Notes: a model not told the origin generated them from the letters alone. A stretch of DNA of 64,000 nt from an uncultured Actinomycetes bacterium (GCA_963725665.1 CAVRZA010000006.1:32001-96000), one strand, 5' to 3'. Counted from the first letter of the stretch, positions 20,018-51,964 are shown. Numbers and translations are program-made.

Positions 20018-20030
20018 TGGCGTTGGCGGC

Positions 20031-21740: not shown

Positions 21741-21883
21741 CCCGCGAATACTGCATTGCGGAACTGCCCATCCGTGATGCAGGACATCATTGCAGCACAC
21801 GAGGCGCGAATCAAGTACGAGTCCGACGCTCGTCGTCGAGCCTGAACGCCGCTCGCCGAGGCACGCGCGGTGCGTGCCGAACG

Positions 21884-22648: not shown

Positions 22649-22684
22649 GCGCCCTCCTCAGCACCCGCCCGCCGTGACTCGTCC

Positions 22685-24880
22685 CTAGTCGCCGTCGCCG
22701 GAGAGACCGGTGGCGTGCCGCCGGCGGTAGTCTGCGTACCAGGCCATGCGGTCGAGCGCGAACAGAGCGGACCGCGGCGACGGAAGCACGATCGGATCGT
22801 AGGGGCCGTCGCACGGGAAGAGCGCCTGGCGGATCGGCGAGTCGTAGACGTTGATGATGGGCTTGCCGGTGGCCTCCATGAGTCCCGCGACGTAGGTGAG
22901 GAACCCGCTCTCCCAGGTGCTGAAGCCGTCGTACTCGCCGCTCGCGCTTGCGGGCCGCACGTCGTCGCCGGTGTTGGGCACGCCGAGCACCGAGAGCACC
23001 GCTATCGCGTCGAAGGCGTCGTTCTCAGCCACCGCGGAGAGCACCCGGCTCCCCACGTCACCGCCGGCCGACGCTACCATGTCGAGCGGGTTGTGGCGGC
23101 TCCAGAACGGCGGCAGCAGCCCGTCGAGCTCCTCGACGAGCGCCGGCGGCAGATCGGGCAAGACCAGGCCGCGGCGCGCGGCCTCGTCGGCCGCGAGCAC
23201 GCCGGCGCCGCCGCCGTTGGTCACGATCGCCACGCGGCGGCCGCGCGGCAGCGGCAGATGCGCCAGCGCGAGAGCCAGGTCCAGCGCCTCGTCGGTGGCC
23301 GTACAGGTGACCACGCCGGCCTGCCGGGCCGCCGCCTCGTAGACGGCCGCGGAGCCCGCCATGGCGCCGGTGTGCGAGGCGGCGGCCCTGCCGCCGACCT
23401 CGGTGAGACCGCCACGCACCGCTACGACCGGTTTGACGGCCGCGGTCCGCCTCGTGACATCCAGGAAGCGGCGCCCGTCGTCGATGCCTTCCACGTACAT
23501 CAGAACGCACTCGGTGCGCTCGTCGGTGCGCAGGTAGTCGAGCACGTCGATGACGCTCACCTGAGCCTCGTTGCCGACGCTGAGGAACTTGTCGATGCCG
23601 ATGGCGCGCCGCTCGGACGCCTTGACGATCTGCACGCCCAGGTTACCCGACTGCGAGACCAGGCTCAGCGGGCCCTGCTGCGGGTGCAGCGTGATGAAGC
23701 CGGTGCCGTGCAGCCGCGTCTCGTTCGAGATCACGCCCATGCAGTTGGGGCCGATCACCGTGATCCCCAGCTCGGCAGCCGCATCCGCCATCTCCCGCTC
23801 CGCCTGCCGGCCCTCATCGCCGGTCTCCGAGAACCCGGCGGCCACGGCCACCACGGCCGGCACGCCGCGTCGCGCGCACTGCTCGAGGACGGACGTGACC
23901 CGCTCGCCGCTGACGGCGAGAAGTGCCAGATCGGGCGCTTCGGGCAGCTCCTCGACGCTCGTGTACACCGGCAGGCCGAAGTACGTGCCGCCGCGCGGGT
24001 TCACCGCGTAGACCGGACCCTCGAAGCCACCGTCGAGGATGTTCTTCAGCGCCGAGCCGCCCCACTTCACGACGTCGTCGGAGGCGCCCACGACGGCGAC
24101 CGACCGGGGGGCGCACACGGCCCGCAGGTCGGGCTGGAAGCCCCGGCCCGGCGCGGGCGCGGTAGCGGCCGACGCGCCGCCCGAGAGGACCACCAGCGCG
24201 TCGGCCGCCACCGGATGATCACCGGCGATGATGAGCGGGTTGAGGTCGATCTCGGTGACCTGTGGATAGTCCGCGGCGATACGAGCGACCGCCAGCACGA
24301 CGCCGGCCAGCTTCGCGCGGTCGACGGCCGGCTGGCCGCGAAACGCTCCCAGGAGGCGCTTCGAGCGGATTAGCTCGAAGAGCTCGTCGACATCGCGCTC
24401 GTCGAGAGGGGGGATCGCGAGCGCGATGTCGCCGAGCACCTCAGTCATGACGCCGCCCAGACCGAAGGCCACCACAGGACCGAAGGCGGCGTCGCGCTTC
24501 ATGCCTACCATGAGCTCGCGGCCGCCGGTCACCATCTCCTCGACGAGCACCGCATCGAGCGCGTCGCCGGCCCGCTCCGCGAGATCGCCGTAGGCGACGA
24601 CCACCTCTTCCGGCCCGCGACGGTCGAGAAGCACCAGCCCCGCCTCGGTCTTGTGGTGGATGCCCTCGCCCACGGCCTTGAGCGCCACCGCGCCGTCGAC
24701 CGACGCGGCAAGTGCGACCGCCTCGGCCTCCGAGCGCGCAAGGCCGCCCTCAGGCACCGGGACACCATAGGCGGCCAGCAGGCGTTTCGCCTCGTGCTCA
24801 TCAAGCGCGGAGCGCCCCGCCACGAGCGCCGCCTCAACGATGGCGGATGCTTCCGCGGGCTGCCGTCTCGCTGTCTGCAT
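22685..24880 (-). CDS. ADP-forming acetate/acyl-CoA ligase (ATP-grasp first, then CoA-binding domains)
   Basis: EHEAKRLLAAYG, HKTEAG, EIDLNPL, VAVVGAS, GPNCMG, SQSG, AASHTGAMAG phospho-His, NPLD. Confidence 0.9.
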   Translation of the reverse strand: MQTARRQPAEASAIVEAALVAGRSALDEHEAKRLLAAYGVPVPEGGLARSEAEAVALAASVDGAVALKAVGEGIHHKTEAGLVLLDRRGPEEVVVAYGDLAERAGDALDAVLVEEMVTGGRELMVGMKRDAAFGPVVAFGLGGVMTEVLGDIALAIPPLDERDVDELFELIRSKRLLGAFRGQPAVDRAKLAGVVLAVARIAADYPQVTEIDLNPLIIAGDHPVAADALVVLSGGASAATAPAPGRGFQPDLRAVCAPRSVAVVGASDDVVKWGGSALKNILDGGFEGPVYAVNPRGGTYFGLPVYTSVEELPEAPDLALLAVSGERVTSVLEQCARRGVPAVVAVAAGFSETGDEGRQAEREMADAAAELGITVIGPNCMGVISNETRLHGTGFITLHPQQGPLSLVSQSGNLGVQIVKASERRAIGIDKFLSVGNEAQVSVIDVLDYLRTDERTECVLMYVEGIDDGRRFLDVTRRTAAVKPVVAVRGGLTEVGGRAAASHTGAMAGSAAVYEAAARQAGVVTCTATDEALDLALALAHLPLPRGRRVAIVTNGGGAGVLAADEAARRGLVLPDLPPALVEELDGLLPPFWSRHNPLDMVASAGGDVGSRVLSAVAENDAFDAIAVLSVLGVPNTGDDVRPASASGEYDGFSTWESGFLTYVAGLMEATGKPIINVYDSPIRQALFPCDGPYDPIVLPSPRSALFALDRMAWYADYRRRHATGLSGDGD

Positions 24881-24954
24881 GGTCGCTCCCTCGCGGTGCC
24901 TGGATCGCTCCCTCGCGGCTTGCGTATCGACCCAACGCGGTCCCCTTGGGCCAA

Positions 24955-24993
24955 TTGACTATATGGTAACCAAATTGCTATTTTACGGTCAAC
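24955..24993. promoter_or_regulatory. Overlapping divergent promoters with a putative GntR/FadR operator
   Basis: AT-rich island. Near-palindrome ATATGGT-A-ACCAAAT at 24961-24975; TTGACT...TATTTT on +, TTGACC...TACCAT on -. Confidence 0.5.
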
Positions 24994-28115: not shown

Positions 28116-28953
28116 TTACGAGGCCGTCAGGACGATCTCACCGAGGTCGACGTCGGTCTGCGTCTTGACGTCGGACCGCTGCGGCACGTAGCCGTCGTGG
28201 CTGACGGTGATGCGGTAGGCCGCGTTCCTGGCGAGGCCCTCGAACTCGAACTGGCCGAAGACATCCGACGTCGTCTCCGCACGCACGCCCTCGCCCTCGA
28301 GCACGACCTTGATGCCCGCAGCGCAGGCGTCGGCGGCGTCGTCGAGGACGACCTCGCCGGCCACGAAGCGCTTGGGGATGCCGTGGTAGCGCACCAGCGG
28401 CGAGCACCCGTACTCCGGGTGCAGCGCCTCGGTCTTCAGGGCCGCCACGCGCTGGGAGATCTCCGACTGCGGATCGTCGAGGTCGCCGAACACCATGGCG
28501 CCGGTCGGGCACGACTCGACGCACCGCGGCTGCTTCTCGCCGGCGTCGAGCCGGTGGGCGCAGAGGGTGCACTTCTGCGGGATCTCGAGCTCCGCGTTCC
28601 AGAACACGACCCGGTAGGGGCAGGCCTGCACGATCTGCCGCTGGCCCTTGGCCTTGTCCGGGTCGATGACGACGATGCCGTCCGGCCGCCGGTAGACGGC
28701 GCCGTCCGTAGCGACGTCCATGCACGGCGCGTCCTCGCAGTGCAGGCAGGGGATGGCGACGTAGTCCACCTTGGGACGCGGGTAGGCGCCGCGCTCGATC
28801 TCCTTGACCTGCATCCAGAACTGCCCGTGCAGCGGCTGCGCGGCCGAGTAGCCCGGGTAGTCGTTGTTGTCGTGCTCGTCACGGCACGCCAGGAAGCAGT
28901 TGTGGCAGCCGTTGCACCTGGTCGACATCGATCAGCATGCTCAGTCGCGTCAT
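28116..28953 (-). CDS. bthL: Pyrogallol transhydroxylase beta-like Fe-S subunit (3 clusters plus C-terminal beta-sandwich); indel near the start
   Basis: CNGCHNCFLACRDEH, ERGAYPRP, CLHCEDAPC, DPDKAKG (no Cys), CPY, KCTLCAH, RCVESCP, C-terminal SDVFGQFEFEGL...VDLG. Confidence 0.85.
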
Positions 28954-28956
28954 CGA

Positions 28957-31504
28957 TCAGCCCTCCCACTTCTCGATGTCGATCAGGCACGAGTTGGGCG
29001 TCATGCCGGGGGCGTTCTTGCTGAGCATGCGCGAAGGCGTGAGCAGGTTGACGCAGCCGCCCTTGTCGATGGAGTCGGCCTTGCCCGGGATCAGCGGATC
29101 GTACTTGGCGGACGAGGCGTAGCTGTGCATCACGCCGGGCCGCACGCGCTCGGTGACGACGGCGCAGCAGAGCACCGACGCCCGGTCGTTGTAGAGCCGG
29201 ACGATGTCGCCGTTGCGGATGCCCCGCGCCTGCGCGTCGTCGGGATGGATGCGCGCCGGCCACCAGGCGTAGCCGTCCTTCTTGATGCGGTGGACGGGGA
29301 TGTCGTCCAGCCAGTCGGTGTGCTTGTCGTAGTGGGAGTGGAAGGAGAAGCGCGGATGCGGCGAGATGAGCTGCAGCGGATACTTCTCGAAGAGCTCGGT
29401 CGAGTGATGGCCCTCCCAGCTCGGGATGTAGTGCGGGATAGACCGGCCGCTCCTCGTCGTCCGGGAAGTGCGCCTTGAGGCTCTCGCGAGACGAACTCGA
29501 TCTTGCCGCTGTAGGTGCCGAGCTCGTGGGCCTTGTCGGTGCCGCGCTTCGGGTTGCTCGGGTCCGGGGTGTCGCACGTCGCGCCCCTCGGCGAACCAGC
29601 GCATCGCCGGGGTGGGCTTGTAGTTCTCCGGGCAGCGTTGATGATGTGGTAGCCCTTCCTGTCGAACTCCTCCCAGTCGACGAACTTGGGCAGGTCGGAG
29701 ATCTCGAAGAACGAGCCTGACCCAGTCGATCTCGGTCTTGCCGCCGTCGGTGAAGTCCTCGTCGAGACCGAGCCGCTCGGAGAGGTCGGCGAAGATCTCG
29801 TAGTCCGACTTCGACTCCCACAGCGGCTCGATGCACTTCTTCTCGCGCACGATGACGCGGAAGTTGTAGCCGCGTGCTGCGCGTTCGTGGTGTACCCGCC
29901 GCAGGCGCCCCACTCGCCGATGTCGTCGCGCTCGAGGTTGGTGCAGGCCGGCAGGATGACGTCGGCGATCCGCGTCTCGCCGTCGACACCAGCAGTCCTG
30001 GTTGACGACGAATTCGAGCTTGGGGCTCTGGTACATGCGCACCCACTTGCGTGGTGTCCGTCATGGTGCCCATGAACGAGCCGCCGTAGCGGTAGAACAG
30101 CTTCACCTCCGAGCAGCCCGGCATGGGATAGATGAAGTGCGTGAACTGCTGCTCGAGCGACTGGCCGCAGAAGCCGTCGCCGTACCAGCTGACCGGCGGT
30201 TCGAGGATCGCGTCCGGGCACGGTCAGCCGATAGAGGCGCTGCTTGGTCGGGTTGTCCGGGAGGAGGTCGGCGACCAGCTTGGACAGCGCGATGCGGCCC
30301 GTCGGGATCGGCATAGGCCGGGAACCAGATGTCGTTGTCGCGCGGCGCGCCCATGGCGGTGCCCCAGATGCTGACGCCCGGGCTTGCCCAGCCCCTGCAT
30401 CGCCTGCAGCAGGACCATCAGGCGCGCCCATTCGGTGCCGTAGGCGGTGCGGCAGGCGCCGCCTTCGCCGCCGCGGGCGCCACGCCGAGAGCATGGTGCG
30501 CTTGCGCGGCCCACTCGCGCGCCAGCGCGCCGATGATGCGGGCCTGCACGCCGCACTCCTCGGCCGCCCACTCCGGGGTCTTGGGCACGCCGTCGCTCTC
30601 GCCCAGCACGTAGGCGCTTGAACTCGTCGAAGCCGACGGTGCGCTCGGCGACGTAGTCCTTGTCGTAGGTGTCCTCGGTGATCCACACATGGGCGATCGC
30701 CATGCGCCAGCGCCGCGTCGGTGCCCGGGCGCGGGGCGATCCATTGGCCGTCCGTCGCGGGCGCCGTGTAGTTGTGGAAGGGGTCGATGAAGACCATCTT
30801 GACGCCCTTCTCCTTCAGCCACTGGCGCCAGATGCGCCGACTCGTGGCCGGTGTAGATGCCGCGGGTCGTGTCCGGGTCGTTCGACCAGAAGACGATCAT
30901 CTCGGCGTGCTTGAGCGCGTCCTCGAGCATGTCGTAGGGCTCGGGCATGCCGAGCCGCCAGTAGAAGCCGTAGGTGTGGGTCGCGCCCCAGTGCCAGCCC
31001 TCCCAGCTGTCGGGGTTGTCGAGCACCGGCGTGTAGCTCGAGCAGGTTCATGAAGCGCGAGAACGCGCCCATCTTGTAGCCGACGATGCCCCAGTTGTGG
31101 TGCGAGGAGGTGAGCGCCGCTGATCGCCGACCCGCCGTAGGTGTTCTGCACGCGCTTGATCTCGCCCGCGACGATGTCGAGCGCCTCGTCCCAGGAGATG
31201 CGCTCGTAGGGCGACTTGCCGCGGTTCTGCGGGTTGCGCTCGCCGTTCGGGTCGAAGTCGACGCGCTTCAGCGGGTACTTGATGCGGTCGTCGGAATAGA
31301 GGCGCCTGCGCTCGGCGAGCACGAACGGCGCGAGGTTGAACTTCTTCGGCGGCGAGTACGTCTTGCCGTCGGCCTCGATCGTCCACGGCCTGAAGTCGGT
31401 CTCGTCGGCGACGAGCGGACGGATGCGCACGACCTTTCCGTCCTCGACGTAGACGCTGATCGGGCCCGCAGTTGGTGCAGTTGGTGAAGACCGCTCTCAG
31501 TCAT
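28957..31504 (-). CDS. athL: Pyrogallol transhydroxylase alpha-like Mo-bisPGD enzyme (copy 1), many frameshifts
   Basis: Pieces across frames: GPISVYVEDGKVVRIRP, RIKYPLKRVDFDPNGERNPQNRG, SSHHNWG, NPDSWEGWHWG, LEDALKHAEMIVFWSNDP, GGACRTAYGTEWAR, LISPHPRFSFH, GGCVNLLTPSRMLSKNAPGM. Confidence 0.9.
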
Positions 31505-31746: not shown

Positions 31747-32626
31747 ATGGCAGCGACCAAGAACCTCGCGGCGCCCAGAGCGAGACGACCTGATCGAGCA
31801 GACGTCCGACTGCCCGATCGAGCGCGATCCGCTCCTCGTGCGCGCGCTCGCGCGCGGCCTCTCTATCCTCTGTCTGTTCGACGTCGACCACCGCGAGTGG
31901 ACCATCGACCAGATGGCCGAGCAGACGGGGCTCCTGCGCATGACCGCGTACCGCATGGTCCGCACGCTGGAGTCGACGGGATTCCTGGTCCGCGATCCCG
32001 CGACCAACCGCTACCACCTCGGTCCCTCGGTCCTTGCCATGACCTACGTCTCGGAGGACCACTCGGAGTTCGTCGCCCTGGCCAGACCGTTCATGGAAGC
32101 CCTTGTGGACCGCACGGGGGAGTCGGTCACGCTCGCGATCGAGGTCGATGGGGCCCCGGTCTGCGTCGACACGATCGACACGACGCGACCCTTCAAGCGG
32201 CAGACGGCTCGCGGTCGAGTCATCGGAGATCTAGCATCTGTGCACGGCAAGGTCTTCGCGGCCTTCAAGCCGGACGAGCAACGAGCGGCCATCCTCGCTC
32301 GACCCCATCCCAAGTTGACGCCGAACACCGTCACCGATCCACAGGCTCTGGCCGACGAACTCGACCTGATCGCGCGCGAGGACCTGGCTTTCGACGTGGA
32401 AGGCCTCTACGTCAGCACGTGCGCTGTCGGGTCCCCGATCCGTGACCAACTGGGCGAAGTCGTCGCGGCGATATCCGTGGTCATGCCCACAGGTCGATTC
32501 GGGCCCGAAGAACGCAGACTCTGCGCCGAAGCCGTGAAGAGCATCGCGACGTCGCTCTCCGCGTACCTTGGCTGGAATCCCCCCGAGTCATCACGAGACG
32601 GTATCCCGTCACACGCCAGTGTGTAG
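31747..32626 (+). CDS. IclR-family regulator, paralog A (N-terminal indel; intact ORF from 31838)
   Basis: VRALARGLSILCLFDVDHREW, RMTAYRMVRTL, GESVTLAIEVDG, TRPFKR, PIRDQLG, PTGRFG. Confidence 0.88.
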
Positions 32627-32674
32627 TCAACCCTTGGTCCAGGTCCCCTCGATGGCGAAAGGACAGCGATTGAG

Positions 32675-35307
32675 ATGACTGAAGGAAACCGCAAGAAGAG
32701 TGGACGTGAGCGTCGACAAGACCGCGATCAAGTCCCTGGCCATGGGCGGCCTGCTCGGGGGCGGCGGAGAGTGTGTCGTCGACGTCAAAGACGGCAAGGC
32801 CGTCAGGATCAGGCCGCTCCACTACGACTGGAAGTACGACGGCGAGCAGTTCAACGCCTGGAAGATCGAGCGCGAACGGCGAGACGCTCGAGCCGCTGAT
32901 GAAGGCGCTGCCCGCCCCCTTCTCGCTCGCCTACAAGAAGAGGACCTTCTCCCCGAACCGCATCAAGTATCCCGATGAAGCGGGTCGACTGGGACCCCGA
33001 CGGCGAGAGGAACACCCAGAACCGGGGCAGGAGCAAGTACAAGAGGATCTCCTGGGACGAGGCGACGGACATCATCGCCGCAGAGATCCGGCGCATTCAC
33101 AAGAAGTACGGCCCGCTCTGCCATCCTGGCCCAGGGAGACGGGCACGGTGAGTGCAAGACGATCCACACGCCCCACGGCCATCAGGCACGTCTCCTCGAC
33201 ATGATGGGCGGATTCACGCAGCAGGTCCGCAACCCGGACAGCTGGGAGGGCTGGTACTGGGGCGCCAAGCACGTCTGGGGTCAAGGCTTCCAGGGCATGA
33301 TGTCGCCGGCCGCGAACCTCATCAAAGACATCTCCGAGAACGCCGACATGGTCCTCAAGTGGGGCTGCGACGAGGAGACCACGCCCTGGGGCTTCACGGG
33401 GCAGTACGCCAGCCCGCATCTCGCAGTTCTGGACGCGAGCCGGCATCAAGCAAGTGTACATCTGCCCGGACCTCAACTACGCGGCCGCCGTCCACGCCGA
33501 CAAGTGGATCCCCATCCTCCCCAACACCGACGCGGCGCTTCAGCTGGCCATCATCTACGTCTGGCTCACCGAGGACACCTGGAACAAGGAGTACGTCGAG
33601 ACGCACGCCGTCGGCATCGACAAGGTCGCCGACTACGTCCTCGGCAAGGAAGACGGCATCGCCAAGACGCCCGAGTGGGCATCCGCCAAGTGCGGAGTGC
33701 CCGAGTGGACCATCAAGGCGTTGGCCCGGGAGTTCGCCAAGAAGACGACCTCCATCGTCCACTACTTCGGCGGCTCCTTCATCAGAGGGCCGTACTCGCA
33801 TGAGCCCGGGCGGCTGGAGTGCGTGCTCCTGGGCATGCAGGGGCTCGGCGGGCCCGGCGTCCACCAGTGCCAGATGACCTACTTCGGCATGCCGAGGGCC
33901 GAAGGCCTGCGGAGCGTGCGCTTCTTCAACCCCGAGTTGAGTGAACGTCTCACGAAGCCCTGCTGGACCACGGTCCACGCCTGGGGACCGCAGCTCATCC
34001 CCAAGACGCTGATCCAGGACGCCATCCTCAAGCCGCCCCTCACGTTCCACGGGAGCGGCGGCCAGGAGTGCCAGACAGAGGAGCAGTTCGAGAAGTTCAC
34101 GTATCCCATCGCCAAGGAGAAGGGCGGCACTCCCATCCACATGATGTGGACCGACACCCCGTGCCGCATCACGTGCTGGAACCACGGCAACTGGACCATC
34201 GAGGCCATGCGCGACCCGAGCATCGAGTGCGTGGTCGCCCAGCATCCGTGGCTCGAGAACGACTGCCTCTACGCCGACCTGATCCTGCCGGCCAACACGA
34301 CGCTCGAGGTCGAGGACATCGTCACCAACACCCGGCAGGGCCCGCACTTCCAGAGCGTCGCCATCCAGGAGCAGGCCATCCAGCCGATCGGCGAGTCGAA
34401 GAGCGACTACGAGATCGTCCTGGCGATCGCCGAGAAGCTGGGGATGGGCGAGCAGTTCAGCGGCGGCTTCACGGTCCGCGATCTGCAGAAGATGGTCTTC
34501 GACAACATGCGCATGGAGGAGCTCACGACCTGGGAGGAGTTCGAGGAGAAGAAGTACTACGTCTACTCCGTCGCCGAGGACTGGGAGAACGACCCGCCCG
34601 GCTTCAGGCTCTTCTACGAAGACCCGAAGGCCAATCCACTGCCGACTCCGACGGGCCTGCTGGAGTTCTACTCCGAACGCCTGGCGCAGCACTTCCCGGA
34701 CGACAAGGAGAGGCCGCCTTACCCGAAGTGGATCGAGAAGGGCGAGACTCACGACGAGCGGCTCTCGAGTGAGAAGGCCGGCATGTTTCCCCTGCTCGTC
34801 ATGTCGAACCACCCGCGCTGGCGCACACACGCTCAGGGCGACGACATCAGCTGGGCCAGAGAGACACCCACCGGCAAGGTGCTCGGCTTCGACGGCTACA
34901 GGTACGAACCGGTCTGGATCAATCCGATCGACGCTGCAGGAGCGCGGCATCAAGGACGGCGACGTGGTCAAGATCTTCAACGAGAGAGGCATCGTGCTCG
35001 TCGGGCGCGCGCGTCTGGGAGAGGATCATGCCCGGCGTGGTCTACGTCGACCACGGGGCTCGCCACGACCCGATCATCCCCGGCAAGGTCGACCGCGGCG
35101 GCGCCATCAACACCATCGCACCGAACGGGATCACCTCGAAGAACGCGTGCGGCCAGGCTACGAGCGGCTACCTGGTCGACGTGCAGAAGGTCACGAAACG
35201 ACGAATGGGAAGCCTGGCGCAGGGACCACCCCGAGGCCTTCGCCAGGGAGTACGACCAGGCCGCCGGGCTGCGCTTCGACGCTTGGATCGAGGGAGGCAC
35301 GGAGTAG
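32675..35307 (+). CDS. Divergent AthL-like Mo-bisPGD enzyme (copy 2), frameshifted
   Basis: VDVKDGKAVRIRPLHY, RIKYP..RVDWDPDGERNTQNRG, GDGHGE, RNPDSWEGWYWG, KTPEWAS, SNHPRWRTHAQGDD, DRGGAINTIAP; TAGATG coupling to the beta gene. Confidence 0.88.
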
Positions 35308-36126
35308 ATGAAGGCATTCGTTATTGACGTCGGCCTCTGCGTGGGCTGCTACGCCTGCCAGTTCGTCTGCAAAGACGAGCACGTCGGCAACGACTGGTCG
35401 CCCATCGCCAAGCCTCAACCCGACACCGGCCAGTTCTGGATGAGGCTCGACGAGCATATCCGGGGCACCGTGCCCAAGGTCGAGATGCACTACGTGCCGA
35501 ACCCGTGCATGCACTGCGACGAGCCCCCGTGCATCCCCCCCTGCCCCGTCGAAGGCGCGATCTACAAGAGGGACGACGGGCTGGTCATCATCGACTCGGT
35601 CAAGTGCACCGGCTGCAAGGCGTGCGTCGATTCCTGCCCCTACGACGCCATCTATTTCAACGAGGACCTCAACCTCGCCCAGAAATGCACCGGCTGCGCC
35701 CACCTGCTCGACGGCGGCGAGTGGAAGACGACCCGTTGCGCCGATGCCTGCCCCACCGAGGCCATCAAGTTCGGGGAGGAGAGCGAGCTCACGGACCTGA
35801 TCGCGCAGGCCGAGGTGCTCAAGCCCGAACTGGGAGCCAAGCCCCGGGTCTACTACCTGAACATCCCCCGGAAGTTCGTCGCCGGCACGGTCTACGACCC
35901 GATCGAGAAGGAGGTCGTCATCGGGGCCACCTGCACCCTCGTCGGCTCCGGCGACGGCGACAAGCAGACCGTCGTCACCGACGCCTTCGGCGATTTCTGG
36001 TTCCGCGGTCTGGCGGACGGCACGTACTCACTCACGATCGACGCGGAGGGCTTCGCCGCCAAGAGCTACGCCGAGATCAGCACGGAGAAAGACGTGAACC
36101 TTGGCGACATACCACTGTCCAGATAG
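35308..36126 (+). CDS. BthL-like Fe-S subunit with 4 complete 4Fe-4S motifs and C-terminal beta-sandwich
   Basis: CVGCYACQFVC, CMHCDEPPCIPPCP, CTGCKACVDSCP, CTGC...CADACP; TDAFGDFWF...VNLGDI. Confidence 0.9.
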   Translation: MKAFVIDVGLCVGCYACQFVCKDEHVGNDWSPIAKPQPDTGQFWMRLDEHIRGTVPKVEMHYVPNPCMHCDEPPCIPPCPVEGAIYKRDDGLVIIDSVKCTGCKACVDSCPYDAIYFNEDLNLAQKCTGCAHLLDGGEWKTTRCADACPTEAIKFGEESELTDLIAQAEVLKPELGAKPRVYYLNIPRKFVAGTVYDPIEKEVVIGATCTLVGSGDGDKQTVVTDAFGDFWFRGLADGTYSLTIDAEGFAAKSYAEISTEKDVNLGDIPLSR

Positions 36127-36213
36127 GCGACTAGCGGGCGAGAGCGGTCGCCGCGAGACCACTCGCGCGGCCTGCCACGAAGACCCAGTCCGTGGCAAGG
36201 AGGACATCAGGAC

Positions 36214-37005
36214 ATGAGATGGGGAACGGTCATCAACCTGGCGAAGTGCATGCGCTGTCACGCCTGCATCGCCGCCTGCAGGATCGAGCACTTCCTGCCC
36301 CTCCACGTGACCTGGTCGAAGCTGATCGCCTACGAAGTGGACGAGGGTGGCGAGGTGGACGTCACCACGTACCCGGTGCGCTGCAACCAGTGTGCCGACG
36401 CTCCGTGCACGCACGTTTGCCCCACCGAAGCCTCACACCAGCGCGAGGACGGTATCGTGGTCATCGACTCGGACAAGTGCATCGGATGTCGCTACTGCGT
36501 CATCGCCTGTCCGTATCAGAACCGCACCTTCCTCTCGAAGGACAAGAACCCCGGCTACTTCCCCGGGTACGAGAAGACCAGGTTCGAGAAGAAGGGCGAG
36601 AAGCTCTACCCGCACCAGGTGGGCACCACCGAGAAGTGCAACTTCTGCGCCGAGCGTCTCGACGCCGGCATGGCTCGCGGCCTGCAACCGGGCAAGGACC
36701 GCGACGCCACGCCGGCGTGCGTGAACGTCTGTCAGGCGCGCGCCCTGACCTTTGGCGACCTCGACGACCCTGACAGCGACGTCTCGATCCTGATCCGCAA
36801 GTACAAGGGCTACCAGCTGCGCGCCGAATACGGGACGGATCCGTCGGTCTACTACATCGACTACAGGCTGGGCGGCTCGCCCTCGAACAAAGCGCCGCGT
36901 GAAGCTCAAACGGGCCATCACATCCAGCACCTCAGCTCCGTGGACCGCGACGCGTACCGGCGCATCTACGGGCACGAGCAGGCTGAGGCGGAGGTGCAGT
37001 CATGA
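36214..37005 (+). CDS. NrfC/DmsB-like 4x[4Fe-4S] electron-transfer subunit
   Basis: CMRCHACIAAC, CNQCADAPCTHVCP, CIGCRYCVIACP, KCNFC...PACVNVC, GTDPSVYY. Confidence 0.9.
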   Translation: MRWGTVINLAKCMRCHACIAACRIEHFLPLHVTWSKLIAYEVDEGGEVDVTTYPVRCNQCADAPCTHVCPTEASHQREDGIVVIDSDKCIGCRYCVIACPYQNRTFLSKDKNPGYFPGYEKTRFEKKGEKLYPHQVGTTEKCNFCAERLDAGMARGLQPGKDRDATPACVNVCQARALTFGDLDDPDSDVSILIRKYKGYQLRAEYGTDPSVYYIDYRLGGSPSNKAPREAQTGHHIQHLSSVDRDAYRRIYGHEQAEAEVQS

Positions 37006-37982
37006 AGGTCCAGACCAACCGACAGTGGATCACCACCCACGAGTGGATGGTCAAGCCCATGCGCCAGAAGGAGTGGATCTCGGGCAAGGGCATCCTCGTG
37101 TGGCTCGCCGAGGTCTTCTCCGCGCTCGGCATGGGGACGCTACCTCGTCGGCCTGCTCGCGGGGCTCGGCGGCATCACCACCGGCGCGTGGTGGGCGACG
37201 GTGCTCGGCTGGGCTGCTCATCGTGCTCTTCAAGCTGCCGCTGCACCTGGTGTACCTGGGCCGGCCGCTGCGCTTCTGGCGCGCGATCCCGCCGTTCACC
37301 AGAGGCGTGGAAGACGTCGTGGCTCGCCCGGGGGATGTTCTTCTCGATCGTGTTCGTCGGCGCCGGCTTCCTGCAGATCGTCTTCTGGTACCTGCTGCAT
37401 TGGGTCGATCTGAGCGCCTCCGCCGCCGACATCGTGACGGTGCTCGCCTGGATCGTCGGCATCGTCGCCGGCGTGTTCATCATCCTCACCGGCGTCTATT
37501 GCGGCTTCGCCATGAGCTACTGCAAGAGCCTGCCGTTCTGGAACACCGGGCCTGCTGCCGATCGTGTTCGTCATCATGGGCATCGCCGACGGTCTGGCCC
37601 TGACGATGGGCGTCAGTCTGATGACGGGCAGAGACGTTCCCATCGAGACGCTCGAGTCCTGGAGCCGTATCGTGCTCGTGGTCAACGCCCTGCTGATCGC
37701 CGGGTACCTGATCCGCGCGTACCACAGGCACTCGACCGCCGAGCTGGCCGCTCATGACCTCATCAAGGGCAGCACGGCCTGGGTCTTCTGGATCCTCCTC
37801 GTGGTCCTCGGCATCGTCACCCCCCTGGCCATCTCATTCGTCGACCATGTTCATGGCGGAGTCGAATGCCGAGCCGCTGCTGATCGTCGCGATCATCTGT
37901 CACACCGATCGGCGCCTTCGCGCTCAAGTACTCCGTCCTCAAGGTCGGCATCTACCGGTCCGTCCTTCCAGGGGTCGCGTGA
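37002..37982 (+). CDS. NrfD/PsrC-like membrane anchor, frameshifted
   Basis: ATGA overlap; LHLVYLGRPLRFWRA, SWLARG, YCGFAMS...PFWN, multiple TM, ending LKYSVLKVGIY. Confidence 0.8.
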
Positions 37983-38016
37983 GGACGGCCTCCGGGCCTG
38001 TCAGGAAAGGGAGACA

Positions 38017-40215
38017 ATGGCTGACCGCAAGCAGATTCTGACGACGTGCAAGAGCTGCCACGGCGGCTGCGGCGTGATCGTCACCGTCGAGGACGGCGTG
38101 ATCGTCCACATCCAGGGCAACCCCGACTCGCTCACCAAGGGCACGATGTGCTCCAAAGGCCTCTCGAGCATCCAGCACATCGACAACCCCTACCGCGTCA
38201 AGTACCCCATGAAGCAGGTCGGGCCCAAGGGCGAGGGCAGGTGGCAGCGCATCTCGTGGGACGAAGCGCTCGACACGATCGCAGACAAGATGAAGGAAGC
38301 GATCCGCGACTACGGGCCGCACACCATCGCCGTCTCGCAGGGCACCGGCCGCGGCTACAACCGCTACACGATGAAGATGGCGCGCTCTCTCGGCACCGGC
38401 AACGCCATCACGCCGGGCTACGTCTGCCACAGCCCCCGGCTTGGCCTCTACGGCCTGGTCACTGGTTACGGACGGCTGTACTGCGACTACCACGGCTGGG
38501 GAGGGGAGTTCCCCAAGACCCAGATCTCGTGGGCCAAGCAGCTGGAGATCAGCAGCGCCGATTCCGAGATGGCGGTGTGGTTCATCAACTCGCTGGACTA
38601 CTGCAAGAACCTGATCATCATCGATCCACGCGCCAGCGCCTTCGCCTCTCGCGCGACGCTTTGGATCCAGCCCCGACCGGGCACCGACTGCGCTCTGGCC
38701 ATGGGCATGATGAACGTGATCTACGAAGAGGAGCTCTGGGACAAGGAGTTCTGCGACAACTGGACCTTCGGCTTCGACGAGCTCCGCGAGCGCGTGCGGG
38801 ACTTCACCCCTGAGAAGGTCTCCGACATCTGCTGGATCCCCAAGGAGCACGTCATCGAGGCGGCGAGGATGTGGGCCATCGATACCCCCGGCTGCATCCA
38901 GGTCGGCAGCTCGCTCGAGCGCCAGGCGAACTGCGGTCACACGCTGCGCGCCATCACCTGCCTCTTGGGCCTGGCCGGCAACATCGAGCGGCCGGGCAGC
39001 ATGATCACCTGGGTGCTCCCCGAGACCGGGCTCATCGAGGACTTCTTCCTGGAGCTGCCGATCACCGACGAGATGAAGAGCAAGATCATCGGCGGCGACA
39101 AGTACAAGATGGGCGCCGCCCGCACGTGCAACCCCGACACGATGGTCAAAGCCATCAACGCCGGCAACAGCCCCATCAAGGTGTGGTTCAGCGTGGGCGG
39201 GCAGCAGATCGTGCACATGGCCAACACCAATGAGGTCGTCGCGGCCATCGAGAAGGTCGACTTCATGGTTCACACCGATCTCTTCATGGGCCCGATGGCG
39301 GAGGCCGCGGACATCGTGCTGCCGGCCGCCCACTGGCTGGAGCTCGACGACGTCTACGACATGCACCCGCGCTTCATGATCGAGGCGCACAACAAGGTCA
39401 TCGACCCGCCCGGCGAGGCGAAGGCCGACGCGTGGATCTTCAACGAGGTCGGCAAGCGGGTCGTTCCCGACAAGTGGTTCGACGACGTCGAAGACATGCT
39501 CGATTACGAGGTCAGAAAGGGCAAGAACGGCACCATGACCTGGAAAGACTTCAGCGAGCAGCTGGTCAGCGGCTGCTTCGGCCCCGACCAGGTGTACTAC
39601 AAGTACAAGACCAACTACTGGAACGAAGGCGGAGGGTTCCCCACTCCGAGCGGCAAGTTCGAGTTCCACTCGAACCATCTCGAGTCGCTCGGGTACGACC
39701 CGCTGCCGGTATTCAGCGAGCCGGGCGAAAGCCCGGTCTCCACGCCGGAACTGTTCAAGGAGTACCCGCTTGTCATGAGCTCGGGCTTCCGGCAGCCCTT
39801 CTACTTCCTCGGTCAATACCGCAACATCCCCTGGCTGCGGAGCTACATGGAGTACCCGCAGTGCCAGCTGCACCCGGAGACGGCGGCGCAGTACGGCGTC
39901 GAGGACGGCGACATCGTCTGGATCGAGTCGCCGCGCGGCCGCGTGCGCCAGAAGCTGCGTGCCTTCCCGGGGATCAAGAAGGGCGTGCTCATGGCCACCG
40001 CCAACTGCTTCTACCCCGAGGAGCCGGCCAAGGGCTACCACGGCGTCTTCATCTCGAACCCCAACGTCCTTACGAGCAACGACCATCTCGACCCGATGTA
40101 CGGCTCACCCGATCTCACCTGCCTTCTGTGCAAGGTCTACAAAGCCAGGCCGGAGGAGCTGAAGGAGAGGGTCTTCCAGACCGAGGAGTACGGCACCGTA
40201 CCTTCCCCGGAGTGA
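38017..40215 (+). CDS. Mo/W-bisPGD oxidoreductase with FS0 cluster and Cys ligand (acetylene hydratase/catechol dehydroxylase-like clade); no Tat signal
   Basis: CKSCHGGC...MCSKG FS0 motif, SQGTGRG, PGYVCHSPR, ADIVLPAAHWLE, FPTPSGKFE, SNPNVLT...CLLCKV; 732 aa, intact. Confidence 0.9.
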   Translation: MADRKQILTTCKSCHGGCGVIVTVEDGVIVHIQGNPDSLTKGTMCSKGLSSIQHIDNPYRVKYPMKQVGPKGEGRWQRISWDEALDTIADKMKEAIRDYGPHTIAVSQGTGRGYNRYTMKMARSLGTGNAITPGYVCHSPRLGLYGLVTGYGRLYCDYHGWGGEFPKTQISWAKQLEISSADSEMAVWFINSLDYCKNLIIIDPRASAFASRATLWIQPRPGTDCALAMGMMNVIYEEELWDKEFCDNWTFGFDELRERVRDFTPEKVSDICWIPKEHVIEAARMWAIDTPGCIQVGSSLERQANCGHTLRAITCLLGLAGNIERPGSMITWVLPETGLIEDFFLELPITDEMKSKIIGGDKYKMGAARTCNPDTMVKAINAGNSPIKVWFSVGGQQIVHMANTNEVVAAIEKVDFMVHTDLFMGPMAEAADIVLPAAHWLELDDVYDMHPRFMIEAHNKVIDPPGEAKADAWIFNEVGKRVVPDKWFDDVEDMLDYEVRKGKNGTMTWKDFSEQLVSGCFGPDQVYYKYKTNYWNEGGGFPTPSGKFEFHSNHLESLGYDPLPVFSEPGESPVSTPELFKEYPLVMSSGFRQPFYFLGQYRNIPWLRSYMEYPQCQLHPETAAQYGVEDGDIVWIESPRGRVRQKLRAFPGIKKGVLMATANCFYPEEPAKGYHGVFISNPNVLTSNDHLDPMYGSPDLTCLLCKVYKARPEELKERVFQTEEYGTVPSPE

Positions 40216-40266
40216 CCAGCGCCGAAGGGGCAAATGACTGCGCAACCCGGAGTGGAGGAGGATCCG

Positions 40267-40587
40267 ATGGCGAAATACCTGATCGTGGCCACCTACAGCC
40301 CCGACGGCATGAAGGGCGTCATCAGAGAAGGCGGCAGCGGCCGCCGCTCGACCATCGCCGACATCGTGAAGAACCTCGACGGCTCGTTGGAGGCTTTCTA
40401 CTACGCCTTCGGCGAGAACGATGTGTACAGCATCGTCGATCTTCCCGACAACGTCACCGCGGCCGCGATGGCCATGCACATCACCGCGGCGGGGATGAGC
40501 AGGTGCGACGTCACGGTGCTGCTGACGCCGGAGGAGATCGACAAGGCCGCCAGGACCAAGATGTGGTTCAGGCCACCCGGGGCGTGA
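40267..40587 (+). CDS. GYD-domain protein
   Basis: MAKYLIVATYSPDG...FYYAFGENDVYSIVDLPDN...LLTPEE; SD GGAGGAGG. Confidence 0.82.
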   Translation: MAKYLIVATYSPDGMKGVIREGGSGRRSTIADIVKNLDGSLEAFYYAFGENDVYSIVDLPDNVTAAAMAMHITAAGMSRCDVTVLLTPEEIDKAARTKMWFRPPGA

Positions 40588-45926: not shown

Positions 45927-46793
45927 GTGATGGGGGGTCTCTTGGCAACCAGGCCGTATCTGCGAGGCAAGGCAACGCTGCTCGAGACGACTTCGATCCG
46001 CAACGACGAAGCCCTATTGGTGCGCGCGTTGTCGAAGGGCCTCCTCGTGCTCAGCCTCTACGACGCCGACCATCGCGAGTGGAGTCTCGACCAGATCGTC
46101 GACCAGACGCGCCTTCCGCGGATGACCGCCTACCGCATGGTGAGAACGCTGGAGAGCGCCATGTATGTGGTGCGCGACCCGGCGACCAACCGCTACCACG
46201 TGGGTCCCGCCGTGATCGCGCTGATGTACCTCCGAGACGCGTACTTGGAGCTGGTCAGGATCGCGCGTCCCTACTTGGAGGCTCTCGCCGAGGAGGCGGG
46301 AGAATCCGCTACCCTCGCCGTCGAAGTAGATGGCGTCGCGGTCAGCGTCGACATGGTGAACACGACTCGCCCCTTCAAGCGGGAGCTGACGCCGGGCCGA
46401 ATCATCGGCGACACGGGCAACTGCAGCGGAAAGGTGTTCGCGGCGTTCAAGTCGCCCGCTGAGAGAGCACTGCTCGTCGCCTCGCCTCACGCGCAGTTGA
46501 CTCCGAACACCATCACCGACCCGGACGCGCTTGCCACCGAGCTGAAACAGATCGCGCGCAGCGGCGTCGCCTTCGACATCGAGGAGCGACACATCGGCAC
46601 CTGCGCTGTGGCGGCTCCGATCCGCGATCAGTTGGGAGCGGTCGTGGCCGCGATGGCGCTCGTGGCACCGACTGGGCGCTTCGGGCTCGAAGAACGGACG
46701 CGGTATGCAGAAGCGGTCAAAGCCAAGGCCGACTCCTTGTCGGCCTACCTCGGCTATTCCGCCCAACACCGTAGCTCAGAAGGCGTCGTCTAG
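45927..46793 (+). CDS. IclR-family regulator, paralog B (start uncertain)
   Basis: VRALSKGL...DADHREWSL, PRMTAYRMVRTL, GESATLAVEVDG, TRPFKRE, PIRDQLG, PTGRFG. Confidence 0.88.
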   Translation: MMGGLLATRPYLRGKATLLETTSIRNDEALLVRALSKGLLVLSLYDADHREWSLDQIVDQTRLPRMTAYRMVRTLESAMYVVRDPATNRYHVGPAVIALMYLRDAYLELVRIARPYLEALAEEAGESATLAVEVDGVAVSVDMVNTTRPFKRELTPGRIIGDTGNCSGKVFAAFKSPAERALLVASPHAQLTPNTITDPDALATELKQIARSGVAFDIEERHIGTCAVAAPIRDQLGAVVAAMALVAPTGRFGLEERTRYAEAVKAKADSLSAYLGYSAQHRSSEGVV

Positions 46794-47948
46794 GATTTCG
46801 GCGACGTCCTGCTTGCCGAAGGCGCGAGCGTTCGACCCGAGGAAGTCGTCGATCTGGCTCCACGAGAGCTCGACGACCTTGGGGATATCCTCGCGCCTGA
46901 GCCCGTAGTCCCGCAGCCGGTGCGCCATTCCTATGTGGTCGAGGAGCTGCTCGACCGCAACGATCGAAAGTCGAGCAGCCTCCAGGTCCGACATGCCGCT
47001 CACCTGCTGACCGAAGATCTCCGCGATGCGCTTGAACGCCTTCGTCTTGGCCGGCAGGTTGAAGCGCATCACTGCGGGAAGTATCGCCGCCATCGAGCGT
47101 CCGTGGGTCAGCTCGCAGACCGCAGCCACTCCGGTGGCGATGCCGTGCACCGCGCCGATGAACGAGCTCATGTAGGCCCAGCCACCCATGCTTGCCGCAA
47201 GGGCTAGGTTGTAGCGAGCCTCCCTGTCCGATCCGTCGGCGACCACCGCGCGCATATACCGGTTGCAGATCTCGAGGATGCTCTCGCTGAACAAGTCGGA
47301 CACGGGGTTCGCCTGCGTGCCCGTGAGGCACTCGATGCCGGTGACGAGGGTGTCGACGCAGGTGTCTGCGGTCGCCTCCGGCGGCATCGACATGGTCAGC
47401 AGAGGGTCGTTGATCACCACGTCGGCCAGCATGAACGGGCTGTTGATGGCGCCATGCTCGTGGGTCTTCTCGTCGATCCGCATGACCGCCGCGGAACCCG
47501 TGTCGGCCCCCGCGACGTGGGTCGTGGAGAGGACGATCAGGGGCAGGCCGGGCCGCGCCACCCTGTTGTGTCCCACCATGCCGCGCAGGTCCGTGCCGTT
47601 CGTCGCCGCCACGGCGACGCACTTGGCGATGTCCATGGCACTGCCCCCTCCGCAGCCGACCACCAGGTCGCAGCTCGAAGACCGAAGGAGCTCGACCGCG
47701 TCGGCAACAAGCTCGATCGGCGCGTCTGGGAGCACGCCGTCGTAGATGGTGAAGGGGATCTGCCCTTCCTCGAGTGACCTCAGCACGGGCGCTACGTCGC
47801 CACGCTCGATCATCGTCTTCTTGGTTACGACAAGGACCTTTGTGCCTCCCAGGGCCTTGACCTCATCGGCCAGTCCCGCAGCGGCTCCGAAGCCGAGGAT
47901 GAACTTGCTGGGCGACAGGAACTCGAAGCCGCCTAGGCTCGAAGGCAT
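46776..47948 (-). CDS. Iron-containing alcohol dehydrogenase family protein
   Basis: SD AAAGGAG; GGGSAMDIAK, STTHVAGAD, NDPLLT, GAVHG...THG. Confidence 0.85.
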   Translation of the reverse strand: MPSSLGGFEFLSPSKFILGFGAAAGLADEVKALGGTKVLVVTKKTMIERGDVAPVLRSLEEGQIPFTIYDGVLPDAPIELVADAVELLRSSSCDLVVGCGGGSAMDIAKCVAVAATNGTDLRGMVGHNRVARPGLPLIVLSTTHVAGADTGSAAVMRIDEKTHEHGAINSPFMLADVVINDPLLTMSMPPEATADTCVDTLVTGIECLTGTQANPVSDLFSESILEICNRYMRAVVADGSDREARYNLALAASMGGWAYMSSFIGAVHGIATGVAAVCELTHGRSMAAILPAVMRFNLPAKTKAFKRIAEIFGQQVSGMSDLEAARLSIVAVEQLLDHIGMAHRLRDYGLRREDIPKVVELSWSQIDDFLGSNARAFGKQDVAEILDDAF

Positions 47949-48035
47949 TGGGGCGCTCCTTTCTCTGATCGCGGACGCTCCAGCGGCCGTTGTGACTGAA
48001 CCACCCCTGCTCGCCGGCACTCGCCCGGCGGCCTG

Positions 48036-48175
48036 CTACACGATGGGAGAGACGCGGCCGAGGTAGCCGCGCAGGGTGGTCGATCCCATCTCGCGGTTGT
48101 ACGGCGGGTCACCCGTCGTGAGCACGTTCAGGTTCGAGTCAGCCCAGCCGTGCACGTCGTCATCTCTGTGCAGGA
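48036..48175 (-). pseudogene. Orphan 3' fragment of a Mo-bisPGD oxidoreductase (C-terminus of the dinucleotide-binding domain)
   Basis: Translates HGWADSNLNVLTTGDPPYNREMGSTTLRGYLGRV, alignable by eye with HGVFISNPNVLTSNDHLDPMYGSPDLTCLLCKV at the end of 38017..40215. Confidence 0.65.
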
Positions 48176-48198
48176 ACACAAGATGCGGCCAAACGTGA

Positions 48199-48242
48199 GC
48201 GGGGGAGGCTTCACGACTTGTGGTCGTGAAGCCTCCCCCCGC
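48199..48242. terminator. Hairpin downstream of the SBP gene; same family as 40671
   Basis: GGGGGAGGCTTCACGAC-TTGTG-GTCGTGAAGCCTCCCCC. Confidence 0.7.
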
Positions 48243-48280
48243 GAGAGTCAACTACCTGGTCCGCTCCACCCCTAAAGGCA

Positions 48281-49524
48281 TCACGGGTTCGTGAACGTCA
48301 CGTTCGGATACGTGTAGACGGGCATCCACCGGTAGTTGCCGTCGACCTTCTGCGTCTTGGCGATGTAGAAGTTGCCGGTGCCGACGAACACGCTTTCGTA
48401 CGGAGACATCGTCACCGTGCCGATCGGCGTGTCGATGCTGATGTCCGCCATGGCCTTCTTGAGCGCCTCAGGCGACGTGTCGCCGTTGGTCTTCTTGACC
48501 GCCGCCAGGAACAGATTGACCGCGGTCCACCCGCCGAAGGAGTCCATGTTGGGCAGCTCGCCGTTCCACATCTTGGTGTAGTCGGCGACGAACTTCTTAT
48601 TGAGGGGGTTGTCCAGCTGCGAGAGATAGTGGTCCGAACCGATGATGTTCAACGAGAGATCGCCGAGCTTCTTCATGACCGGCTCCTGGAGGTCGTCGGC
48701 CATGGTCATGACCAGCGGAGCGGTGATGCCGTAGTCGTTGTACTGCTTGATGAACGGACCGGTGCCGTTACCGAAGATCCAGTTGTACGTGCAGTCGGCC
48801 GGCTTCAAGGAGGTCAGGTAGGAACTGAAGTCGACCGTGTCGATGGGCACGTACTTCTCGGTCAGGATCTGACCGCCGCCCTCCTCGAGGGCCTTCCTGA
48901 AGCCGCGCATCAGCTCGTGGCCGGTCGTGTCCTCGTAGTTGATGGAGTTCGCCGTCTTGAATCCGAGCTGCTCGACCACGTACTTGCCGAGCAGGTATCC
49001 CTCCATCGCGAACATCCCGGCCGGGATGAACGACAGGTTGTTCCCCGTCTTCAAGTTGTCGGTCGGCTGGCCGAAGATCGAGATGGAGGGTATGCCACCG
49101 CCCTCTTTGCCCAGATAGCCGGTGACAGCCGCGTTGGCCGGCGAAAAGATCGGACCGAGCATGACTTGTATCTTGTCCTGCTCCACAAGCTGCCGGGCCT
49201 TCTCGACGGCCTGGGTCGGATCGGAGTTGTTGTCGGCCTTGATGTACTCGAGCGGCCTGCCCATCCACTGGTTGTTGACCTCTGCCATAGCGGTCTTGAT
49301 GCCGTGCTCGGTGAGGTTCGCGTCAACGGCCATAAAGCCCGTGAACCCCTCATCGAACCCCATCTTGAGCGGCTCTCCGGTTGCTGCCGGCACCGGCGAC
49401 GCCGACGCCGAGGCAGAAGCGCCACCCCGGAGGTCCCGCTCGAGCCGCACGAGGCCAGAACGAACGCGCTGATCGCCAGCATGAGCACGAGCACCAAGAA
49501 TATTGTCAGTGGCTTCTTGTGCAT
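48281..49524 (-). CDS. Lipoprotein ABC substrate-binding protein (LivK-like); indel after the lipobox
   Basis: MHKKPLTIFLVLVLMLAISAFVLASC signal; PLKMGFDEGFTG, DNNSDPTQAVEKARQL, DFSSYL. Confidence 0.85.
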
Positions 49525-50723: not shown

Positions 50724-50753
50724 CGGCCGCTCATATCCTCCCAGCCACCGATG

Positions 50754-51948: not shown

Positions 51949-51964
51949 GGCGGATCGCATAGCG

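Follow-up and report, generated by a model that had tools for sequence, protein, structure and literature searches.

Pyrogallol-phloroglucinol transhydroxylase (AthL/BthL) of Pelobacter acidigallici (4v4c) needs 1,2,3,5-tetrahydroxybenzene as cosubstrate and is reported to move the hydroxyl with no exchange against water; its small subunit BthL carries three [4Fe-4S] clusters and, at the C-terminus, an Ig-like domain. The AthL-like enzymes RehLS and DbhLS of denitrifying Aromatoleum and Thauera are described as adding a ring hydroxyl from water with release of electrons (PMC10084136, PMC10100899). Acetylene hydratase of Pelobacter acetylenicus (2e7z) is described with Cys141 as ligand, FS0 cysteines 9, 12, 16 and 46, and an Asp13 that is specific to the hydratase subfamily and essential, the D13A variant being inactive (PMC12096430). 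Its closest relatives are the catechol dehydroxylases according to Maini Rekdal et al. 2020 (PMC7028382), whose account also notes environmental homologues, including an acetylene-hydratase-like gene in the 3,5-dihydroxybenzoate operon of Thauera aromatica, the mutant of which is said to grow poorly. "Acetylene hydratase-like" and pyrogallol hydroxytransferase genes of sediment Chloroflexi are noted, unlinked to each other, in the description by Hug et al. 2013 (PMC3971608). Here we analysed a window of 64,000 nucleotides (the whole stretch CAVRZA010000006.1:32001-96000 of assembly GCA_963725665.1, from an uncultured Actinomycetes bacterium) in which candidates for both kinds of enzyme are encoded in one run of genes at 32675-40587. 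The data give good support to a conserved functional tie that joins an AthL-like, redox-competent hydroxylase to an enzyme of the cytoplasm derived from acetylene hydratase and wired by iron-sulfur (FeS) proteins. The polyphenol context of the unit is likewise well supported, and the conserved pair suggests an undescribed oxygen-free reshuffling of hydroxyls on plant phenols. Full-text literature searches, whose coverage lay outside subscription journals and supplements, returned no published description of the unit.

The window lies on contig C6 of a 3.73 Mb genome (12 contigs, 68% G+C) whose nearest relatives are metagenome-assembled genomes (MAGs) labelled Thermoleophilia. An earlier note on this DNA had proposed six same-strand genes, and indeed all six are found on the + strand. 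The first, alpha1 (32675..35307), encodes an AthL-like molybdopterin subunit with a Ser ligand, its N-terminal piece matching PF21423, and is followed by beta1 (35308..36126), a BthL-like FeS subunit with Fer4_11, a C-terminal CarboxypepD_reg domain and four complete Cys groups. Next come an NrfC-like four-cluster ferredoxin subunit without signal peptide (36214..37005), an NrfD-like membrane subunit (37002..37990, end approximate; PF03916 on a fragment) and an intact 732-aa Cys-ligand bis-molybdopterin guanine dinucleotide (bis-MGD) enzyme with FS0, which we call CysMo (38017..40215; Molybdop_Fe4S4, Molybdopterin and Molydop_binding). The sixth gene encodes a GYD-domain protein (40267..40587; PF08734, E 1.1e-22), and directly upstream of alpha1, also on the + strand, stands an IclR-family regulator (31838..32626; HTH_IclR and IclR_C). 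Both proposed junctions are present: the TAG of alpha1 abuts the ATG of beta1 (TAGATG, 35305-35310), and NrfC and NrfD overlap in an ATGA at 37002-37005. The earlier note had pointed to a terminator at about 36130-36210 as a feature that might split the unit. We saw no terminator-like + strand site in 36127-36213; the beta1-NrfC spacer folds somewhat better than shuffled sequences (z -2.25), and a T tail is absent. Two peat metagenome runs hold a joint that skips 36127-36212, the sides of which are short (40 and 26 letters, 90% likeness), and we gave it no weight.

Because alpha1 and NrfD are broken by frame switches in the window, we analysed proteins that had to be intact from orthologues at other loci (e.g. 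L021, L001). The middle piece of the window's alpha1 has the pyrogallol hydroxytransferase large subunit as its best PDB match (E 5e-50), and an intact orthologue (L021:9488-12106(-)) aligns with 4v4c_A over the full length (451 bits, E 5.7e-134), keeping His144, Asp174 and Ser175 (NPDSW), of which Ser175 is the metal ligand in AthL. Each of 29 alpha1 orthologues carries the motifs GDGHGE and (N/Q)PDSWEG, no twin-arginine translocation (Tat) motif was seen in 30 alpha1 N-termini, and like AthL, alpha1 has neither FS0 nor a Tat signal. Against AthL Tyr404, HMMER pairs Arg and MAFFT pairs Phe or Tyr, in a region that is not reliably aligned. A second pair of this kind, divergently transcribed from the IclR gene, adjoins the unit: alpha2 (28957..31504, - strand; PF21423, 71 bits) and beta2 (28116..28928, - strand). 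An alpha2 orthologue (L001:1021-3546(-)) scores 865 bits against 4v4c_A (E 3.9e-259) and keeps SSHH and FPAYAE, whereas alpha1 has GDGHGE in place of SSHH. Given 865 bits for the alpha2 type and 451 for the alpha1 type against the same chain, the canonical transhydroxylase is, as judged from these alignments, alpha2/beta2, and alpha1 is a paralogue belonging to a clade of its own. The earlier description of the alpha subunit as the AthL-like enzyme therefore stands for the family, the Ser ligand and NPDSW, but the true AthL orthologue is the divergent neighbour alpha2.

Beta1 shares with BthL the Fer4_11 and C-terminal CarboxypepD_reg build but differs in its clusters: as had been claimed, it is of the four-cluster type, in contrast to the three clusters of BthL. 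Its 16 Cys fall into four groups; among 26 orthologues 15 of them never vary, and conservation of Cys14 is at least 90%. Beta2 has lost the third Cys group, and only three complete groups remain. Alpha1/beta1 also differs from AthL/BthL in travelling with a second Mo enzyme and NrfC/NrfD. The RehLS/DbhLS pathways are described as oxidative, running via hydroxyhydroquinone and hydroxybenzoquinone (PMC10084136), whereas the window context is that of reductive phloroglucinol breakdown. The membrane protein of those pathways, BtdS, belongs to the DoxX family, whereas the unit has NrfD; an identity of NrfC/NrfD with the hydroxyhydroquinone dehydrogenase BtdLS was considered and rejected, BtdS being described as a 135-aa DoxX-family protein (PMC10084136).

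The best solved relative of CysMo is acetylene hydratase 2e7z (306 bits, E 3e-90), followed by FdhF (188 bits, E 1.7e-54), thiosulfate reductase (174 bits) and DMSO reductase (138 bits). Among bis-MGD enzymes with PDB sequences, CysMo is nearest to acetylene hydratase (306 versus 188 bits), the relation described for the dehydroxylases (PMC7028382), and it falls nearer to the hydratase than to the sulfur and N-oxide reductases (174 and 138 bits), a placement among which would have spoken against the earlier proposal. In the HMMER alignment with 2e7z, CysMo retains all four cysteines of FS0 as well as the ligand Cys (Cys137 at the position of Cys141), and the two proteins agree in size (732 versus 727 aa) and cytoplasmic location. 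The pocket differs, however. Asp13 is replaced by His15, the His for Asp after the second FS0 Cys that the earlier note had singled out, Trp179 by Ala181 and Trp472 by His450, while His138 follows the ligand Cys. His15, Ala181, His450 and His138 are invariant in 12 of 12 sequences (alignment A1, 70-100% identity), and CxxCHGGC is present in 62 of the 62 complete CysMo N-termini listed, a 63rd (L006) beginning after the motif. As the essential, subfamily-specific Asp13 is an invariant His, CysMo is by its alignment not an acetylene hydratase, and its pocket has shifted from hydrophobic to His-rich.

No Tat motif was seen in 63 CysMo and 65 NrfC N-termini, in agreement with the Cys-ligand FS0 enzyme lacking a Tat peptide that had been proposed, so the active site faces the cytoplasm. 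Acetylene hydratase stands alone, with no redox partners, whereas CysMo always comes with NrfC. The Coriobacteriia catechol dehydroxylases (Dadh, Hcdh, Cadh; Dodh, Cldh) are, by published description, nearest to acetylene hydratase, like CysMo. Those of Eggerthella are described with a 4Fe-4S subunit and a membrane anchor, like the partners of CysMo, but are Tat-exported, and those of Gordonibacter, like CysMo, with no Tat signal and a small FeS partner; linkage to an AthL-like hydroxylase is not reported in the parts of that account available to us, whereas CysMo is linked to alpha1 (PMC7028382). The best 120 CysMo matches are 70-86% identical and spread across Actinomycetota, Desulfobacterota, Acidobacteriota and Chloroflexota, the few named sources being Thermoleophilia, Desulfobacteraceae, Dehalococcoidales and Chloroflexi MAGs.

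We then compared loci. In the CysMo protein search, 8000 candidates were scored, of which 4268 match with an E-value no higher than 1e-20. Scanning species-representative genomes gave 221 CysMo loci, and the comparisons use the best 80 of these 221. NrfC precedes CysMo in 76 of the 76 loci with at least 1.9 kb upstream of CysMo, and NrfD is present in 74 (absent in L052 and L053); NrfC-NrfD-CysMo is a fixed module. Alpha1/beta1 adjoins this module in 26 of the 56 loci that are fully flanked (at least 5.8 kb upstream and at least 3.7 kb downstream), 11 upstream, 14 downstream and one convergent; of the rest, six have beta1 ~9 kb away, one has a paralogue and 23 have none. When all 80 loci are counted, 11 have the pair immediately upstream, with one more truncated after beta1, 23 have it immediately downstream and one has it convergent. 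Beta1 is ~9 kb off in six, a 51% paralogue is all that one locus shows, and none is seen in 37, of which many lie on short contigs. The gene order is alpha-beta-NrfC-NrfD-CysMo in Thermoleophilia and NrfC-NrfD-CysMo-alpha-beta in Desulfobacterota, Acidobacteriota and SAR324. Among the fully flanked loci, grouped by record label, the 14 of Thermoleophilia comprise 11 upstream, one convergent and two with none, the 18 of other Actinomycetota six near and 12 with none, the seven of Desulfobacterota are all downstream, the four of Acidobacteriota comprise three downstream and one with none, the five of other groups four downstream and one with none, and the eight of Chloroflexota one paralogue and seven with none. 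The IclR match occupies the same position in 11 of the 11 loci with the upstream arrangement. The GYD gene, by contrast, is present as claimed but does not belong to the conserved unit, as just two of the 80 loci (L008 and L017) have a GYD match behind CysMo.

The two genes also occur together when they are not neighbours. In these large genome searches two to three candidates were scored per genome, and the identity lines were set after the lists were seen. Among 38 genomes without adjacency, an alpha1-type gene is found at 76% identity or more in 30, at 63-72% in seven and as a weak match in one. A 401-genome sample of the window's class has CysMo in 50 genomes and alpha1 (at least 70%) in 45; both are present in 40, CysMo only in 10 and alpha1 only in five. 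CysMo there is confined to two families (12 of 79 and 37 of 61 genomes) plus the window genome, with none elsewhere in the 401. In the class of the L051 genome (301 genomes), CysMo occurs in six, and the alpha1 orthologue (at least 93%) in the same six and in none of the other 295; a 66-68% alpha1 paralogue is found in 24 of the 301, of which 19 are without CysMo. The earlier note had named loss of synteny as a reason to abandon its proposal, and the two gene orders in different phyla, together with this co-occurrence, show the linkage conserved. There is a precedent in the Thauera 3,5-dihydroxybenzoate cluster, which besides its acetylene-hydratase-like gene encodes the AthL-like DbhLS.

The surroundings of the unit are those of phloroglucinol breakdown. 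About 12 kb upstream, on the - strand at 17037-20894, Pfam families identify BKACE/TAL (17037-17879), cyclase/DPGC (18236-19045), the 3-hydroxyacyl-CoA-dehydrogenase-like TfD (19049-20119) and SDR/PGR (20034-20894), and the whole, complete-looking phloroglucinol set, with an IclR regulator, a second SDR and an ADP-forming acyl-CoA synthetase, extends over 17037-24958 (-). By family assignment these four match the characterised anaerobic pathway, which is described as PGR, DPGC, TfD and TAL, of the SDR, cyclase, 3HCDH-like and BKACE families (PMC10470551). At L053, seven genes form an operon SDR-cyclase-cyclase-NrfC-CysMo-alpha1-beta1 with gaps of 0-86 bases, a PGR-like SDR and no NrfD, followed by TRAP transporter genes; L051 has the genes of this operon plus NrfD. 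At L022 the order is NrfC-NrfD-CysMo-3HCDH-BKACE-SDR-IclR-AOR, with no alpha1. The closest public reads to the unit are from peat metagenomes. The earlier interpretation thus holds in part, for a conserved two-enzyme unit and an aromatic context, and that context reaches beyond what it had listed, for the canonical transhydroxylase and the phloroglucinol pathway are both neighbours.

Two cyclase-family genes in tandem, with 42-47% identity to the DPGC of the window, accompany CysMo at L051 (3810-5469) and L053 (7504-9114). Such a pair is also found in G349, G249, G304, G364 and others, lying ~6-34 kb from CysMo in the nearest genus; the window genome has a single DPGC type only.

We hypothesize that this is a polyhydroxybenzene catabolic unit that feeds the phloroglucinol pathway, a reading that we consider evenly balanced between right and wrong. 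In the scheme that follows we infer its substrates, the direction of electron flow, that beta1 and NrfC touch, and what quinone does. Alpha1/beta1 would be a water-dependent ring hydroxylase of the AthL/BthL kind that, unlike the canonical transhydroxylase, keeps in beta1 a complete four-cluster electron wire, and CysMo would be a cytoplasmic, Cys-ligated Mo or W enzyme from the acetylene hydratase and catechol dehydroxylase branch. Alpha1 may hydroxylate a trihydroxybenzene, for example pyrogallol to 1,2,3,5-tetrahydroxybenzene, with two electrons leaving via beta1; CysMo may draw two electrons via NrfC and strip a flanked ring hydroxyl to give phloroglucinol, and through NrfD the pair could borrow electrons from, or return them to, the quinone pool. 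The net result would be a hydroxyl shift from pyrogallol to phloroglucinol via 1,2,3,5-tetrahydroxybenzene, after which the nearby SDR, cyclase, dehydrogenase and BKACE enzymes would reduce and cleave phloroglucinol. Such split-transhydroxylation chemistry, in outline that of the earlier note, seems plausible and is the most economical mechanism. In its strictest form, a transhydroxylase divided in two with direct FeS-to-FeS hand-over of two electrons and NrfD coupling to quinone as a buffer or for energy conservation, we hold it tentatively, as possible but doubtful. The operon without NrfD speaks for electrons passing directly from one FeS protein to the other, whereas the many stand-alone modules argue that CysMo with NrfC/NrfD can also run from the quinone pool alone. 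With the canonical transhydroxylase adjacent, the unit could, as a third option, provide or trim the cosubstrate of that enzyme. A complex prediction for beta1 and NrfC gave 0.27 against a mark of 0.32 and weighs neither way.

Several observations weigh against this catabolic unit as we read it. Of the 56 fully flanked loci, 23 are without an alpha1 inside 10 kb, including 7 of 8 in Chloroflexota and 12 of 18 in other Actinomycetota, so that NrfC-NrfD-CysMo can be a self-standing operon. Ten CysMo genomes of the 401-genome sample have no alpha1 at 70% or more, with two candidates scored per genome and a line chosen post hoc. The genomes compared are kin, so the counts exaggerate independence, and the six Desulfobacterota genomes are effectively a single lineage (92-96% identical). 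Finally, the canonical transhydroxylase next door could isomerise pyrogallol alone, which would make a split version seem redundant.

The alternative that survives best is that the two enzymes share a pathway but no wire: NrfC-NrfD-CysMo would be a self-contained quinol-dependent reductase, probably dehydroxylating some hydroxylated aromatic, and alpha1/beta1 a separate hydroxylase or transhydroxylase, each exchanging electrons with the general pool. Their shared location would then reflect no more than that both handle polyphenols ahead of phloroglucinol. We regard this as unlikely, although the loci without alpha1, the module's own membrane anchor in 74 of 76 loci and L022, where the module stands with ring-cleavage genes and no alpha1, all fit it, as do the Chloroflexota, in which the module is followed instead by membrane protein, UbiA, radical-SAM and methyltransferase genes. 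However, two independent gene orders hold the pair adjacent, and 30 of the 38 genomes without adjacency carry an alpha1 orthologue at 76% or more, with seven others at 63-72%. In the NrfD-less L053 and L052, beta1 is left as the sole encoded redox partner for the FeS protein, and beta1 keeps a fourth cluster that is absent from the non-redox transhydroxylase type.

In three of the Chloroflexota loci (L071, L073 and L075, ~11850-16200), the genes behind CysMo encode a protein of 371-401 aa, which in L073 is cytochrome b561-like, a UbiA prenyltransferase and a UbiE-like methyltransferase, with a radical SAM/SPASM protein in L071 and L073 only. Together they resemble a gene set for a cofactor related to quinone or haem.

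The unit might instead be a helper, with alpha2/beta2 doing the bulk conversion of pyrogallol to phloroglucinol and the unit making or trimming the tetrahydroxybenzene cosubstrate pool via the quinone pool. This would suit the cosubstrate need of the transhydroxylase and the position of alpha2/beta2, which adjoins the unit in the window and whose large subunit is the true AthL orthologue. Beta2 and both alpha2 fragments are matched (49-84% identity) in L001, L002, L007, L008, L015, L016, L035, L065, L068, L037, L041, L044, L047 and L063. Most Desulfobacterota CysMo-alpha1-beta1 loci, however, have no alpha2-type gene within 10 kb, and the L053 operon joins alpha1/beta1 and CysMo straight to SDR and cyclases with no alpha2, so we consider the helper role improbable, and the catabolic unit with its own hydroxylase and CysMo halves remains the reading we prefer.

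It is far less probable still that CysMo has no activity on aromatic rings and is a hydratase, or a reductase of S, N or As oxyanions, placed here by chance. Its nearest solved structure is indeed acetylene hydratase, in NCBIfam it scores best against thiosulfate reductase PhsA, and Psr/Phs enzymes typically have NrfC/NrfD partners. However, the PhsA score of 264 bits is far under the cutoff of 694; CysMo thus differs from the Psr/Phs polysulfide and thiosulfate reductases both in this score and in having no periplasmic Tat export, the active site being cytoplasmic. Asp13 is His in all the aligned sequences and complete listed N-termini, and the linkage to alpha1 and phloroglucinol genes is conserved. 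For NrfC the best NCBIfam model is DsrO (174 bits, cutoff 200), and no NCBIfam model passed its cutoff for alpha1, alpha2, CysMo, NrfC, NrfD, beta1, the GYD protein or the four pathway proteins. The ESM Atlas returned generic "molybdopterin oxidoreductase" clusters only.

The earlier note had also hinted that the sequence needed polishing, and alpha1 and NrfD are indeed broken in frame. Alpha1 has eight frame switches, each a single extra base and with no in-frame stops, NrfD ~7 single-base insertions, alpha2 ~17 switches and a downstream aminotransferase three, while beta1, NrfC and CysMo have none; intact NrfD orthologues are 314-321 aa. We aligned contigs from four peat-metagenome runs of one study to 32600-38100 (90-99% alike). 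These contigs are without one base at 33119, 34939, 35001 and 35196, at least four of the eight alpha1 junctions, and are one base short at six or more NrfD sites (37140, 37213, 37302, 37546/37548, 37841 and 37905). Because related short-read contigs do not have those extra bases, we read the breaks as patchy assembly errors. That alpha1 and NrfD are true pseudogenes and the unit dead in its organism is scarcely credible: the switches do fall in these two genes and spare beta1, NrfC and CysMo, but all those in alpha1 come from one added base each, its pieces share 65-97% identity with an intact orthologue, related contigs are one base short at four alpha1 and six NrfD sites among those listed, and unrelated neighbour genes carry like breaks.

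CysMo is among the most strongly conserved uncharacterised molybdoenzymes of anoxic soils and sediments, and in bacteria from peat and wetlands its gene is part of catabolic islands for polyphenols. How polyphenols are degraded without oxygen matters for the "enzyme latch" account of carbon storage in peat, as set out in PMC10470551. If the two enzymes are a true couple, the known chemistry of the DMSO reductase family would widen, the "pyrogallol hydroxytransferase" and "acetylene hydratase-like" genes of sediments described in PMC3971608 would gain a function, and the question of the transhydroxylase cosubstrate would become testable. The split form would add a new oxygen-free phenol isomerisation and would explain the origin of the tetrahydroxybenzene that the classical transhydroxylase uses.

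The two parts of the unit have different closest relatives. The window's alpha1/beta1 are nearer to copies in another family of the class (L021 alpha 81%, L018 beta 86%) than to the syntenic ones of the nearest genus (70-76%), whereas it is this genus that has the best matches to NrfC and CysMo (83-92%) and to the NrfD fragment (67-82%). Since alpha1/beta1 and NrfC/NrfD/CysMo point to different relatives, the halves 32675-36126 and 36214-40215 seem to have recombined. AthL-like genes are numerous in these organisms. Genomes without an adjacent alpha1 carry up to ~29, and the window genome (G000) has three more alpha genes of this type near or off the window, at C6:96617-99173(-), C6:103619-106189(+) and C7:9950-12496(-); contig C7, which encodes a second, 100% identical PGR protein, may be duplicated sequence from a strain.

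Elsewhere in the window, one open frame of 860 aa at 53904-56483 (-) has an aldehyde:ferredoxin oxidoreductase in its first part and an IclR regulator in its second, and this is probably two genes merged by an assembly error rather than a fusion. A second cluster at 46779-53656 (-) encodes an iron-type alcohol dehydrogenase (Fe-ADH), a solute-binding protein, MoaF, a thiolase, an SDR and a second BKACE, and of all proteins in the window, the SDR of this cluster matches the L053 operon's SDR best (54%).

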